Source of the DNA: Nanobdellota archaeon
GTDB taxonomy: Archaea > Nanobdellota > Nanobdellia > Pacearchaeales > GW2011-AR1
Direction of reading: 5' to 3'
NCBI GenBank assembly: GCA_038046005.1
Contig: JBBSXB010000002.1
Span: 1 to 17,899 of the forward strand
DNA: 17,899 nt
The position numbers and the translations under genes were made by a program. Below the pieces are notes generated by a model. It worked only from the letters and a program-made list of their open reading frames with translations. It did no database searches and was not told the origin of the DNA. This document shows, piece after piece, positions 5,739-16,906 of this stretch. Within the stretch, counting starts at the first letter, position 1; each line of letters begins with the position of its first letter.

Positions 5739-5776
5739 TTGGTAGTGCCTAAAAAGTAATATTGGTAGTGCCTAAA
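5739..5776. repeat. 15-bp direct repeat TTGGTAGTGCCTAAA x2 (23-bp period)
   Basis: Exact copies at 5739-5753 and 5762-5776. Partial inverted copies at 5793-5799 and 6348-6358. Confidence 0.85.
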
Positions 5777-5902
5777 TATGGATTCAACGACCTTAGGCAT
5801 ATGTCATTCTCAAGAGAGTTGACACTACTACAAGTGAAAAACCATCTGTCATTTTTTAAGAGTAACAAAAACGAAAGGTTTAAATACTGCAACAAGTTGG
5901 TA

Positions 5903-5980
5903 TATAATCACCTCTTTTTCCCCAGGATAGAGGTCTTGGGACTCTATTTGATTTCTCAGGACATCTATCCCAGGGTTATA
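5903..5980 (+). ncRNA. Candidate structured 5' leader or small RNA
   Basis: BRE/TATA-like CGAAAGG-TTTAAATA at 5872-5886. Stem 5925-5941/5954-5970 pairs 16 of 17 positions, including two G-U. Confidence 0.4.
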
Positions 5981-6016
5981 ATCAAAATAAATGGAACGAA
6001 GGACAATAAAAATAAA

Positions 6017-6307
6017 ATGAGAGTATTAAAAATTGAAGGAGAAAGAACAGTAGAAGTGTCCCACCCTATAGATGGATCTGGATATTTATATCCTAAAGAC
6101 ACAGTAAGAGTTGTATCTAAGTATTATTTTTTCCCCCATACAATAAATAATGAAACAAGAATAGGAAGACAAACATTAGAACAAAGAGCAAATATTAGTT
6201 CCATATGTGCAGATATAGATTTAGGTCCTGTTTTTTACAATTGTTGGCACGATCAAAAATTTGTTGATTTACCTGCTTTGCCTGTTGCAGCGCAGCATCC
6301 CATATAA
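6017..6307 (+). CDS. Hypothetical protein (96 aa)
   Basis: ATG at 6017 (MRVLKIEG...). The longer 5762 start runs through repeats and a promoter and is unlikely. Confidence 0.5.
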   Translation: MRVLKIEGERTVEVSHPIDGSGYLYPKDTVRVVSKYYFFPHTINNETRIGRQTLEQRANISSICADIDLGPVFYNCWHDQKFVDLPALPVAAQHPI

Positions 6308-6382
6308 AAATTTAATAAGCTTTATAATCAAAACCTTTAAATAGGAAAGGCACTAACATATTATATTAAAAAAGAGATTTAT

Positions 6383-6564
6383 GTGAGCTTATTAAGATTA
6401 GTTCTTGCTCACTTGATATTCATTTATTGAAAAGTCGTGGGATACAGTGATTTATTCTTTAGTAAACATCCCCACGCAACATATTCATATTAATTTAAAA
6501 AATTATTTATTTGCGGGCTTAATAAGCATCAGTCTTTGTTATTGATGCTTGCCCAAACATATTC
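6383..6564 (+). ncRNA. Candidate ncRNA array of three bulged hairpins
   Basis: TATA at 6336-6343. Hairpins at 6383-6412, 6436-6476 and 6515-6554, each followed within a few nt by ATATTC. Confidence 0.5.
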
Positions 6565-6609
6565 TAAGATTATATAAATTTTTATAAAGTTAACAACCTA
6601 AGAAATCCT

Positions 6610-6849
6610 ATGAGCCAAGATGTATACAGCGTATTTATTAAATTTGAAAGTTTAGGTAATACTGAGATAGCTTTATCCCATGAAGGAGCACCATGGAACG
6701 CAAGAGAGTTTGCACTTAAAATTTACGGAGAAATTAGAAAAAATTATACAAAACCCGAAAATGTATCTTTAGTTAGATATGTAGATGGTAAACCAAGAAA
6801 AGTAGTATTATCTGATTTAGAAAAAGAAGCTCTTGGAATTAAAGATTAA
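6610..6849 (+). CDS. Hypothetical protein (79 aa)
   Basis: TTTATAAA at 6581-6588 followed by a leaderless ATG. Globular amino-acid composition. Confidence 0.65.
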   Translation: MSQDVYSVFIKFESLGNTEIALSHEGAPWNAREFALKIYGEIRKNYTKPENVSLVRYVDGKPRKVVLSDLEKEALGIKD

Positions 6850-6865
6850 AATATTCTCTAAAAAA

Positions 6866-7075
6866 TCAATTCTTACTCTCAAACTCACTATAATGACACT
6901 TTCCGCAATACACTCTGTCTTTTGCAATCATCAAAAATACTCCGGGACCACATCTAGGACAAAATTTAGCCCGTGTAACCTTGTCGCCGCTTAAAGTGTA
7001 TTTAGAATATTTCTTGCTGGTTGGTTTGTTCTTGTGTGGCTTCTTACCTTTTTTTCCGCCTTTTTTATCTGCCAT
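6866..7075 (-). CDS. rps27ae: 30S ribosomal protein S27ae (eS31)
   Basis: CPRCGPGVF...DRVYCGKC zinc ribbon. Start corrected to MADKK at 7075. Confidence 0.95.
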   Translation of the reverse strand: MADKKGGKKGKKPHKNKPTSKKYSKYTLSGDKVTRAKFCPRCGPGVFLMIAKDRVYCGKCHYSEFESKN

Positions 7076-7079
7076 TTTA

Positions 7080-7391
7080 TTATTGCACAACCTCTGCAAC
7101 AGGTGCAAGAAGTTTGGCTATTTTTTCTTTTTCTTTTTTTGAAAATGACTCTGTTTCATCCATATCTTTTCTTGAATGATAAATAAATGCGAAAACTTTG
7201 AAATGTTTTGTTCCCGATTTTCCCACTATTTTTTTTATTAAGACAAGTTCCGGAGTTTTAGAGAATTTTTTGCATAGAGCGTCTGTTGCTTCTTTTTTTG
7301 AAGGAGTTCTCTCTTCAGAGATTTCAAACTCTATCTCTTTTCTCTTGAATAAATGATTCTCAAATTCTTTAGAAATGTGTTTTATTTCCAT
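7080..7391 (-). CDS. rps24e: 30S ribosomal protein S24e (eS24)
   Basis: N.LFKRKEI.F...TPSK.E...I....G.......IY pattern and its position before rps27ae. Confidence 0.9.
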   Translation of the reverse strand: MEIKHISKEFENHLFKRKEIEFEISEERTPSKKEATDALCKKFSKTPELVLIKKIVGKSGTKHFKVFAFIYHSRKDMDETESFSKKEKEKIAKLLAPVAEVVQ

Positions 7392-12360: not shown

Positions 12361-12837
12361 ATGAAGTGGAAAAAAGAAGAAGTAGATTTATTAAAAGAAA
12401 GCTATCCAAAAAGAGTTACATTAAAGGAAATTTCTAATAAACTTGGAAAAAGTATCAAATCTGTAAAACACAAAGCTGCAAGAATAGGTATTCATAGACC
12501 AAGATTTCGACCTGACAAAATTAATCAAAAAGAGCCCAGGTGGGTTATCGATAAAAGATATTATGAAAATAACAAAGAAAAAGTTTATTTGAGAAAAATG
12601 AACAGAAGAAAAAGGCTTAAAGAGGAAGTTGTTAATATGTTAGGGAACAAATGTAGACTTTGTGGCTATAATAAATCCTACGCTGCCTTTGATTTCCATC
12701 ATGATAAGGGAGAAAAAGAAGAGAATATAAGTTATTTGATAAAAAATGAATCACGACAAAAGCTTTTAAAAGAGGTGGAAAAGTGTATATTACTATGTTC
12801 TAATTGCCATAGGGAACTACATAATAAGGGTCCATAG
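12361..12837 (+). CDS. HTH (Myb/SANT-like) plus zinc-binding HNH endonuclease
   Basis: N-terminal W..EE..LL...Y......I...LG.S..SV..KA. C-terminal CRLCG....AFDFHH ... CILLCSNCHRELH. Confidence 0.85.
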   Translation: MKWKKEEVDLLKESYPKRVTLKEISNKLGKSIKSVKHKAARIGIHRPRFRPDKINQKEPRWVIDKRYYENNKEKVYLRKMNRRKRLKEEVVNMLGNKCRLCGYNKSYAAFDFHHDKGEKEENISYLIKNESRQKLLKEVEKCILLCSNCHRELHNKGP

Positions 12838-12917
12838 GCTAGTGGTAGACTACCTGGCTCCAGTGTTAGAAATAATGGAGAGCCCAGGAGGTGGGAGTTC
12901 GATTCTCTCTGGGCCCA
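12828..12917 (+). tRNA. tRNA-Trp(CCA) with a 19-nt canonical intron (12864-12882)
   Basis: Acceptor stem GGGTCCA/TGGGCCC. Anticodon stem CCTGG/CCAGG with CT-CCA-G. BHB motif: central helix CTCC/GGAG, bulges AGT and AGC, intron hairpin GTTA-GAAA-TAAT. T arm GGGAG-TTCGATT-CTCTC. Confidence 0.93.
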
Positions 12918-15800: not shown

Positions 15801-16325
15801 TTATTTTTGCATTAGTATCAATTCAACTTTATTTATGAAATCATAAGCATCTTTTTTAATTTTTTCAGCTATGTTCTTTGTAGTCTCTTTTGTTATACTA
15901 TACTGGGCAATTTCCCTTTTGTGTCTTGCATCTGAAAGTTTCTCCACTTCTTCTTTTTGAAATTGCGCATTTCTTATTAATGACAAATCAGTTTCATTCA
16001 AATGTTTCTTTTTAACAAAATACTCTTCAAGAATGATAAGAGTTGCTGTGTGGTTTTTGCTCCTAAAACCTATTTTTGCCAGTAAAGCCAAAGACGCAGA
16101 GTACATTGCATAGTATCCAGCAATAACAACCCATTCATTAGGATCATAATCTTTTGGAAGTTTCAGCATTTTCTTTAGCTCCTGGCTATCGCCAATTTTG
16201 TAAATTGCTTGCATAGTAAGAAGATTTCTCTTGGATTTTTCTAGATATTTCTGTGCTAAAGGCACTATATTTTTATCTACAACTACTTGTCCTTTAGCCA
16301 AATAAAATTTTATTTTGTCTTTCAT
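15801..16325 (-). CDS. HEPN domain protein
   Basis: YL.KS..NL, W.....YYAMY....ALL...G..SKNH.AT and R-X4-Y (REIAQY) motifs. Confidence 0.9.
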   Translation of the reverse strand: MKDKIKFYLAKGQVVVDKNIVPLAQKYLEKSKRNLLTMQAIYKIGDSQELKKMLKLPKDYDPNEWVVIAGYYAMYSASLALLAKIGFRSKNHTATLIILEEYFVKKKHLNETDLSLIRNAQFQKEEVEKLSDARHKREIAQYSITKETTKNIAEKIKKDAYDFINKVELILMQK

Positions 16326-16906
16326 TTTAAGTATGCTTCAGAGTAAAACAATTCATATCCTTTAAAAATTATACCAAATTTAACCAAATCATTCCAAAAT
16401 ACATCATTTTCTTTCTTTATTTTCTTAAATTCTGATTTGGGTAAAACAACAGGATTAAACTCCAAATTAGTCAAAGAACTTAAGCTTCTCAGTTCTTGCT
16501 CATCATCTTTTTTATTTAAGCTTACACAAATGATGTCCACATCACTTTCCTTTGTGGGGTTTCCTTTTGCATAACTGCCAAAAATTGCCAAAAAATCCAT
16601 GTTTTCTTTATCTATCTTTGACAAAGCATTAAAAATTGTTTTATATTTATTAGAGAGTTCTTTTAATCTGTCCTTTGCGTAAAAAAAGAATGCAATTTTT
16701 GCTTCTTCTTTTTCAAAATTTAATGAGTAAACAAGTGTCTTACCAAATTTCATGGAAGAAATTATTTTTTCTCTTTCCAACTCTCTAATGTTCCTGTAGA
16801 CTGGCTCGTAACTCAAGCTGGTTCTTTCCATGACTTTCTTTAAGGTTATTTCTTTCCCTTCAGGAAAAAAGCTGCTCAATATTTTCAATTCAGTTTCTTT
16901 CAGCAT
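16322..16906 (-). CDS. HTH-MNT minimal nucleotidyltransferase (antitoxin of an MNT-HEPN pair)
   Basis: FGSYAKG.....SDVDI motif and an N-terminal winged HTH. ATGA overlap with the HEPN gene. Confidence 0.92.
   Translation of the reverse strand: MLKETELKILSSFFPEGKEITLKKVMERTSLSYEPVYRNIRELEREKIISSMKFGKTLVYSLNFEKEEAKIAFFFYAKDRLKELSNKYKTIFNALSKIDKENMDFLAIFGSYAKGNPTKESDVDIICVSLNKKDDEQELRSLSSLTNLEFNPVVLPKSEFKKIKKENDVFWNDLVKFGIIFKGYELFYSEAYLK

Follow-up and report, generated by a model that had tools for sequence, protein, structure and literature searches.

What are 3 bulged hairpins in a row, each followed by nearly the same short tail, doing between 2 small genes of a DPANN archaeon? The hairpins, H1, H2, and H3, occupy positions 6383–6412, 6436–6476, and 6515–6554 on the plus strand of a 17,899-nucleotide (nt) stretch (hereafter, the window), which is one whole contig (JBBSXB010000002.1) of a Nanobdellota archaeon assembly (GCA_038046005.1; order Pacearchaeales, family GW2011-AR1) with a 0.87-Mb (874,611 nt), 33% G+C genome. 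They lie within a 302-nt spacer (6308–6609) between 2 plus-strand open reading frames (ORFs), ORF96 and ORF79. An earlier note made from the letters of the sequence (the original prediction) had taken the array for a small-RNA precursor of a new kind, reminiscent of H/ACA guides. Our analysis indicates that the array is a real and conserved RNA feature that had not been annotated before, and that its context is more interesting than the H/ACA idea. The hairpins are very probably plus-strand RNA structures maintained by selection, which belong to modular families and are linked in position to the 3′ flank of a small RNA that we call element A (5907–5983).

Two families of bulged hairpins

All 3 hairpins were recovered where the original prediction had placed them, with the folds it described and a tail of the form (A)CATATTC or GATATTC after each. 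H1 is arranged as GUGAGC-[UUAUU]-AAGA..UCUU-GCUCAC, with the bulge in brackets, and is followed by the tail UUGAUAUUC (6413–6421), which includes GATATTC at 6415–6421. H2, with the arrangement CGUGGG-[AUACA]-GUG.A.UUUAUU..AGUAAA-CAU-[C]-CCCACG, has a leader GAAAAGU (6429–6435) and a tail CAACAUAUUC (6477–6486) that contains the 9-mer AACATATTC at 6478–6486. In H3, the core GGGC-[UUAAU]-AAGCAUCAGU..AUUGAUGCUU-GCCC can be extended at its base to a unit at 6513–6554 (GCGGGC-UUAAU-AAG...CUU-GCCC), and AACATATTC recurs at 6556–6564 within the tail AAACAUAUUC (6555–6564). The bulge of each hairpin lies on the 5′ side only and spans 3 to 5 nt, with H2 having an additional 1-nt bulge on its 3′ side, and homologues in other genomes are alike. 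Ahead of H1 stand a tail-like copy of AACATATT (6355–6362), which had also been pointed out, and a purine leader, AAAAAAGAG (6368–6376), complementary to CUCUUUUU of the element A 5′ tail. A possible fourth, H4-like unit (CCUUU-AAAUAGG-AAAGG, then CACUAAC) occupies 6334–6357, with the hairpin itself at 6334–6350; this assignment is tentative, the loop being divergent.

When each hairpin was folded alone and compared with 200 dinucleotide shuffles, z-scores were −2.5 for H1 (5 of 200 shuffles equally stable), −2.0 for H2 (7 of 200), and −3.6 for H3 (1 of 200). The fold of the entire 302-nt spacer was not remarkable relative to its shuffles on the plus strand (z = −1.75) or the minus strand (z = −1.69). 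The 9-mer AACATATTC is not enriched in the genome, where 14 plus-strand and 12 minus-strand copies in 874,611 nt are about what composition predicts, so chance cannot be judged from this genome alone and the significance of the 9-mer comes from its position and conservation. BLAST of the spacer and motif scans found no other copy of the array in the 0.87-Mb genome.

Relatives of the hairpins do occur in other genomes. The array is kept at 96% identity in a genome of the same genus (G001), and BLAST matched H3 alone in 2 other genera. The H3-type hairpins of relatives follow the pattern GYGGGC-UUAWU-AAG...CUU-GCCCRC with upper stems that are wholly different yet still paired, and further loci hold H2-like hairpins of the form AAGU-CGWGG...CCWCG-CA. 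A covariance-model search of DPANN genomes had been proposed as a check, and it did find relatives. Model R1 was built from 6 H2-type sequences and model R2 from 9 H1/H3-type sequences, and both were run against 150 genomes of the family (one per genus) at E ≤ 0.01. Each matched at least 18 of the 150 genomes, mostly in 1 copy and with 1 to 2 copies per genome found among relatives; these genome counts are lower bounds because the search filters were strict, and counts across relatives are not phylogenetically independent. In the window, H2 scored 73.4 bits with R1, and H3 and H1 scored 71.7 and 53.2 bits (E = 4e-10 for H1) with R2, values that are high partly by construction because H1, H2, and H3 were among the training sequences.

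H1 and H3 were recognized by R2 and H2 by R1 only, so the array holds 2 families. The original prediction's proposal of one architecture for all 3 hairpins gives way to 2. The hairpin at 464–514, which had been put forward as a further relative, matched neither R1 nor R2, even at E ≤ 10 with filters off. That hairpin is a stable bulged structure in its own right (−17.6 kcal/mol, z = −3.45) just upstream of a phosphatase-like gene (533–952).

Both families carry the marks of selection on base pairing. Compensatory changes occur at 13 of 14 pairs in the H2-type alignment, in which 88.4% of cells are paired versus 69.7% in shuffles, and at 4 of 8 pairs in the H3-type alignment (99.6% versus 86.5%); in neither family did any of 500 shuffles score as high for covariation as the real alignment, and slid registers collapsed. 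All these figures overstate independence, the sequences being related and their alignments having been fitted to the models. H3-type members show little or no variation in GGGCUUANUAA, and their upper stems covary and are wholly different between genera. Single-stranded motifs are family specific: UUANU plus AAG at the H3 bulge, AUUUAUUUUUUAGUA in the H2 loop, and UCUAAAAU in the H4 loop.

The strand on which this selection acts can be read from G-U pairs, which the original prediction had already seen to favor the plus strand. Minimum-energy folds contain 25 G-U pairs on the plus strand versus 1 on the minus strand for H3-type hairpins, and 41 versus 15 for H2-type hairpins. Of the two strands, the plus strand gives the more stable fold in 29 of 33 H3-type and 21 of 28 H2-type copies, the H2 upper stem collapses when read as the minus strand, and an A-to-G change in the H3 of G001 converts an A-U pair to G-U on the plus strand. 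The G-U asymmetry and fold stability together argue for selection on a plus-strand single-stranded fold, most simply an RNA. H1, H2, and H3 each combine a model match, covarying stems, plus-strand polarity, and a site downstream of element A.

The hairpins behave as modules in that their order and number vary. An H1 orthologue with an identical tail adjoins an H2-type hairpin in G129, giving the order H1→H2, and we found H3→H2 in G249, H2→H3 in G168 and L393, and at least 3 H2-like units in G236. Other hairpin types occupy the same position behind element A in other genomes, H4-type among them; a strict form of the H4 motif (stem-CUARAA-stem-GCACK) was seen behind element A in 7 of 109 loci, with none on the opposite strand. 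On metagenome contigs, the H3 pattern yielded 7 real copies among 80 loci taken from at least 119 matches, the others being chance. A module generally starts with a leader rich in A, in many cases AAAAAGAG, and continues with a basal stem clamped by G-C pairs, a bulge or loop conserved within its family, and a UAUAWUC-type tail.

Element A and the hairpins behind it

Element A is a predicted plus-strand small RNA of about 77 nt, recognized by conservation, compensatory changes, and fold. It consists of an invariant 5′ tail, AUCACCUCUUUUU (5907–5919), a long hairpin of about 55 nt (5921–5975; z = −3.9), and a 3′ tail, UUAUAAUC (5976–5983). Across 59 sequences, 10 of the 14 pairs predicted in the hairpin have changed in a compensatory manner. 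A BLAST search found element A in 128 of the 151 genomes examined from the order; within the family, 100 of 105 genomes have it. Upstream, on the same strand, a putative promoter module (5847–5886) whose fixed spacing to ATCACC is kept among relatives comprises a conserved box TGTCATTTTTTAAGAGTAACA (5847–5867), a CGAAAGG resembling the transcription factor B recognition element (BRE) (5872–5878), and a TATA box, TTTAAATA (5879–5886); we take these to be promoter elements from the archaeal BRE/TATA consensus. The invariant tail AUCACCUCUUUUU may resemble the anti-Shine-Dalgarno end of 16S rRNA; a search of the assembly did not turn up the 3′ region of the 16S gene.

Between scpA and the element A promoter, a direct repeat, TGGTAGTGCCTAAA, occurs twice at 5740–5777. 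Similar boxes, TGTAGTGNNTA, are found in 2 to 4 copies at the same place in the relatives L110, L207, and L220, and the 2 kinds of box may be regulator-binding sites.

The tie between element A and the hairpins was examined in an independent sample of 80 species, chosen among the matches listed solely for carrying element A. All 17 R2 matches and 14 of 15 R1 matches in this sample lay downstream of element A on the same strand, H3-type hairpins being present in about 16 of the 80 species and H2-type hairpins in 9 to 10. Among relatives, the hairpins follow element A at a distance of 20 to 190 nt, often 20 to 40 nt, and in most genomes neither room for a promoter nor a T-run separates element A from the first module. 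In the window, ORF96 (6017–6307) intervenes, in a segment of 346 nt. A contig of a related strain that lacks this segment runs from 5975 directly into 6322, 9 letters at the joint being assignable to either side, and this junction indicates that element A stood immediately before the array in the ancestral state.

These observations bear on the promoter that had been proposed for the array, a TATA at 6336–6343. The centroid fold pairs the H4-like bases at 6334–6350 and leaves this TATA in the loop of the possible H4-like hairpin. Since the modules of relatives follow element A directly without promoter room, the array probably does not form an independent unit transcribed from 6336.

We tentatively favor the reading that the hairpins are co-transcribed, modular 3′ stem-loops of the element A unit, with a role in 3′-end formation, processing, or protein binding. 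Four observations recommend it: the lack of promoter room and T-runs behind element A, the variable number and order of modules, the position of copies away from element A at gene 3′ ends, and the shared tail. Such copies lie mostly at gene 3′ ends; of 9 examined, 5 have a convergent gene opposite them and 1 stands behind a gene read in the same direction. RNA polymerase would start at the element A promoter and, in the ancestral arrangement, would run straight from element A into the modules because no T-run separates them. The modules would then be autonomous, interchangeable 3′ elements that might mark and protect the 3′ ends of RNA or be recognized as processing sites by a sequence-specific factor. 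They might also separate the element A unit from the operon that includes the gene for ribosomal protein S27ae (6866–7108, minus strand; Pfam Ribosomal_S27, E = 1e-13), which is convergent with the array and is the usual downstream neighbor of element A and its hairpins among relatives.

Flanking motifs, strand, and complementarity to element A

The flanks of the hairpins are conserved on both sides. ATATTC or ATAATC follows 13 of 30 H3-type copies, compared with 3.1% of background windows, and ATAWTY follows 20 of 30 H3-type and 13 of 20 H2-type copies (9.6% of background). The same tail motif follows the element A hairpin, in the form UUAUAAUC or UUAUAUUC. On the 5′ side, AAAGAG precedes 12 of 30 H3-type copies (3.6% of background windows). 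A run of at least 5 A within 30 nt 5′ is found at 23 of 29 H3-type and 13 of 20 H2-type copies versus 14% of background, and a run of at least 4 A at 26 of 29 and 19 of 20 versus 31%. Plus-strand runs of at least 5 T within 30 nt 3′ of the hairpins show weak enrichment (11 of 29 H3-type and 4 of 20 H2-type copies versus 20%).

The 5′ A-runs suggest another reading, in which the hairpins would be minus-strand terminators or insulators for the convergent S27ae-S24e-Spt4 operon, with tandem copies keeping antisense transcription from running into element A. On the minus strand, the leader becomes CTCTTTTTT, a T-run after each reverse-complement hairpin, so the A-run frequencies just given are those of a terminator-like T-run. 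Most loci place the hairpins against the S27ae 3′ end, more than half of the examined copies away from element A face a convergent gene, and the hairpins still fold on the minus strand (z = −3.1 for H1, −1.25 for H2, and −3.6 for H3). We nevertheless think this distinctly unlikely, because the G-U asymmetry in both families indicates selection on a plus-strand RNA and the H2 upper stem is lost on the minus strand. Invariant bulge and loop sequences would be unexpected in terminators, the hairpins persist where there is no convergent neighbor (for example, in L058, between co-oriented ORFs), and archaeal terminators are reported to be hairpin independent.

The leader also draws attention to element A, since AAAAAGAG is the complement of CUCUUUUU in the element A 5′ tail and occurs downstream of element A in 13 of 98 loci versus 1.6 expected. 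Perfect complements of the 5′ tail of at least 8 nt were found downstream in 22 of 106 loci, compared with 6 of 106 on the opposite strand and 10 of 106 for a shuffled tail. In one clade, a 9- to 10-nt perfect complement of the extreme 5′ end of element A stands past the hairpins, and in L042 such a complement, observed by eye, is followed by a T6 run. At least in the L042-type clade, element A and the trailing hairpins look, from sequence, like one RNA of about 180 nt closed by a terminal helix. Across loci such a helix is enriched, modestly and not universally, and we regard it as a lead.

Complementarity of this kind also fits the original prediction's model of processed small RNAs (sRNAs). 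With element A and the H4-like unit included, a polycistronic A-H4-H1-H2-H3 precursor would be cut at the leaders and tails, and the units would act in trans through their bulges or loops. Conserved flanks and single-stranded motifs particular to its family do mark each unit, units come in variable number and order, a few lie away from element A, and the leader AAAAAGAG is complementary to the invariant 5′ tail. We consider this reading possible but rather unlikely. Some units measure just about 35 nt, no target complementarity was found for them, a genome-wide search gave no convincing target complementary to the element A 5′ tail, and no covariation was detected between the H3 bulge center and any position in element A.

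The reading of the hairpins as 3′ modules has difficulties of its own. Plus-strand T-runs past the hairpins are barely enriched, and archaeal termination is generally thought not to depend on hairpins. The strongest flank signal is the 5′ A-run, that is, a T-run after the hairpin on the minus strand, which fits terminators of the convergent operon. The invariant bulge nucleotides GGGCUUANUAA imply a specific partner, and none was found. Modules are missing from most of the genomes that carry element A, as the frequencies in the 80-species sample indicate, so they are dispensable for element A. Finally, an 8-kb element separates element A from H2 in G110, and with ORF96 standing between element A and the array in the window, co-transcription here would need read-through of the 346-nt insert.

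Integration and gene indels at the locus

Could the hairpins act as DNA instead? The question arises because the element A 3′ end is an integrase attachment site, in a pattern like that of attachment sites in tRNA genes. In G110, an 8-kb segment (within L207, G110:C9:16400–25300) lies between a complete element A and a duplicated 15-nt piece of the element A 3′ end, TCTCCCAGGGTTATA, and H2 follows this piece. The segment encodes a tyrosine integrase (L207 7216–8376, minus strand; Pfam E = 2e-24) together with an AAA_25 protein, helix-turn-helix proteins, and a DUF4145 protein. As at tRNA genes, an element that bears an integrase has a copy of the 3′ end of a small RNA gene on either side; the difference is that the target here is not a tRNA. 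On a metagenome contig, a gene for a 249-amino acid protein lies between 2 H3-type units, the second of which is preceded by a duplicated piece of the element A 3′ end, CTCCCAGGGTTC, and element A also occurs on 2 proviral-type contigs.

Smaller segments come and go at the same locus. A 12-nt direct repeat, TTATAATCAAAA, with its left copy at the tail of element A (5976–5987) and its right copy at 6322–6333, brackets the ORF96 segment that is absent in the related strain. ORF96 encodes a 96-amino acid protein, and in 2 genera a gene of this family lies between the element A 3′ end and the hairpin array. The family was found in 4 of 151 genomes, with weak homologues in 3 of 150 others; members include L218 656–943 and L216 1459–1749, measure about 96 amino acids, share the motifs M.LKTL, YFLFP, and Y.N.WE, and have no Pfam match. 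We considered and rejected a role for ORF96 as a hairpin-linked protein, given its presence in only 4 of 151 genomes and its different context in G005.

Past the H3 tail, a site bounded by the direct repeat ATATTCT (6559–6565 and 6851–6857) has 3 alleles: ORF79 in the window; an empty site in G001 and in runs X1 and X7; and 277 other letters in run X9. ORF79 (6610–6849) is an orphan ORF of 79 amino acids with no Pfam match, present in 1 of 151 genomes, this one alone. The UAUAWUC tails thus coincide with the recombination edges of small gene indels, at ORF96 as well as at ORF79. In G129, the assembly breaks exactly between GGGTTATA of element A and the next tail, TGATATTC (L220/L219; end of C45 and start of C44), a break that fits strain heterogeneity or repeats at a hotspot.

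On another reading, the hairpins with their UAUAWUC core would be recombination sites, as folded or as duplex DNA, of the secondary-attachment or attC-like kind, where integrases would insert and swap small gene cassettes beside element A. The 15-nt duplication in G110, the TTATAATCAAAA repeats around ORF96, the 3 ATATTCT-bounded alleles, and the duplicated piece on the metagenome contig together with the proviral-type contigs all fit this proposal. The resemblance to attC extends to bulged hairpins with variable centers and conserved flanks at the edges of small variable gene segments, and Ghaly et al. are said to have reported archaeal integrons in 2022. A direct comparison with integron attC sites was negative: there are no R″/L″-L′/R′ boxes with a GTTRRRY core at the hairpin bases, and the hairpins lie about 25 nt apart without cassettes between them. 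A Pfam search of the window proteins found no integrase encoded in the window. The hairpins differ from attC further in being single copy and vertically inherited, at one syntenic site, and in their plus-strand G-U pairing. No true H3-type copy was present on viral contigs among 80 loci taken from at least 120 matches. Downstream ORFs show no bias toward co-orientation (22 co-oriented versus 64 convergent among 93 classifiable loci, by a crude classification), so an integron-like expression platform is not supported, and the 7- to 12-nt repeats at the indel edges may come from microhomology-mediated deletion. A DNA-level role is, in our judgment, decidedly improbable.

A bolder proposal joins the RNA and DNA observations. 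Element A would be a guide-like RNA whose CUCUUUUU pairs with the leader AAAAAGAG (..GGUGAUAA in some clades) and places an endonuclease to cut at the UAUAWUC tails, as an archaeal counterpart of 3′-end processing by U7 small nuclear RNA and a CPSF73-type enzyme; the tails would double as crossover cores for integrases and cassettes, making the locus a processing array and an insertion hotspot at once. The likeness to U7-guided histone processing, and to 3′ stem-loop or terminator modules generally, lies in tandem stem-loops behind a strongly promoted RNA gene at the border of a convergent operon; the pyrimidine 5′ tail of element A, moreover, has its complement in a purine element, AAAAAGAG, beside the stem-loops. 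The differences are that the purine element occurs in a minority only (the 13 of 98 loci above) and that U-runs 3′ of the hairpins are weak. We regard this proposal as very improbable.

Known RNA classes and repeats

Could the array instead belong to an RNA class or repeat that is already known, such as H/ACA or C/D sRNA, reduced pieces of RNase P RNA or signal recognition particle (SRP) RNA, a riboswitch, or a repetitive extragenic palindrome (REP) or miniature inverted-repeat transposable element (MITE)? ACA or AUA does follow 2 or 3 of the stems in the window, and in this genome Rfam finds neither RNase P RNA nor SRP RNA. An Rfam scan had been proposed as a test of novelty. With Rfam 15 the window gave 2 tRNA matches only, the best score within 6250–6650 being at most 24 bits against thresholds of 50 to 100, and neither element A nor the loci of relatives matched any family, so novelty is not refuted.

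The H/ACA resemblance did not survive closer comparison. Archaeal H/ACA guides have a two-sided pocket, a K-turn or K-loop, and an ACA box. The likeness consists of tandem hairpins on one strand with a short conserved 3′ box, ACA following H2 and H3 here. In contrast to H/ACA sRNAs, the conserved box is UAUAWUC, the loop is one-sided in the window hairpins and homologues alike, members are as short as about 35 nt, and no H/ACA family in Rfam matched. No opposed GA/AG tandem typical of a K-turn or K-loop occurs in the 3 hairpins or the family consensus, in keeping with the original prediction, which had itself seen neither a K-turn nor a two-sided pocket. The ACA is not conserved, as homologues show CAUUAU, AAUUAU, GUGAU, and similar sequences past the stem. 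The hairpins are not guide RNAs of a known class.

RNase P RNA was considered in a reduced form, because the H2 leader and the 5′ half of H3 may loosely resemble its regions CR-I and CR-V. The best match to RF00373 (E = 2.1) fell at another locus, and the candidate strands are taken by covarying hairpins; the covariation behind these local hairpins excludes a long-range pairing of the P4 type. Element A is also unlikely to be RNase P RNA. In the genome as a whole, RNase P RNA, Pop5, Rpp21, and Rpp29 were not found, and an Rpp30-like match (C8:61861–62178) scored 32 bits against a cut-off of 35 bits. Maturation of tRNA 5′ ends may follow a different route in this lineage.

SRP RNA was rejected on other grounds. 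Relatives' homologues of the edge of contig C6 match Archaea_SRP with 79 to 86 bits (E = 1e-16 to 1e-18), which places the SRP RNA elsewhere, so element A and the hairpins are not SRP RNA and the assembly merely cuts the SRP gene. The edge itself (C6:1–110; L217) holds the 3′ part of the SRP RNA at the contig end, the scores of the relatives being below the gathering score of 96.5. SRP54 is present in the genome and SRP19 was not found.

A dispersed REP or MITE repeat was rejected because the hairpins are single copy in the 0.87-Mb genome and present in 1 to 2 copies per relative genome; they keep to one syntenic locus and are not found in mixed orientations. With no Rfam match approaching a gathering score, no pseudouridylation pocket, K-turn, C/D boxes, or conserved ACA, and with covarying local hairpins in single copy and an SRP RNA elsewhere, a known class is, in our estimate, extremely improbable. 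In those portions of the literature on DPANN noncoding RNA, Pacearchaeota small RNA, and DPANN integration sites that were available to us, nothing concerns this RNA, which is not proof that it is unpublished.

Other features of the window

A HEPN-domain gene (15801–16325, minus strand) adjoins a nucleotidyltransferase gene (16322–16906, minus strand), an arrangement typical of HEPN-MNT toxin-antitoxin pairs. A tRNA gene of 90 nt (12828–12917), which scores 49.8 bits in Rfam and receives an odd four-letter anticodon call from ARAGORN, probably contains an intron.

Implications for DPANN archaea

If the reading of the hairpins as 3′ modules of the element A unit holds, Pacearchaeota- and Woesearchaeota-type DPANN archaea would carry an unannotated small RNA locus made up of a core, interchangeable stem-loops, and an attachment site. 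About 85% of the genomes sampled from the order have the core, element A, so that a near-universal small RNA of the order would double as an integration target, a role that in archaea is, to our knowledge, almost always played by tRNA genes. The locus would add 2 or 3 new RNA families to annotation pipelines, and it would provide a marker for finding, in metagenome-assembled genomes of DPANN archaea, integrated elements and cassettes that differ among strains. Even as simple terminators, the hairpins would be of an uncommon kind for archaea, both conserved in sequence and hairpin dependent. As 3′ modules, they would offer a tractable case for how archaeal small RNAs gain their 3′ ends.

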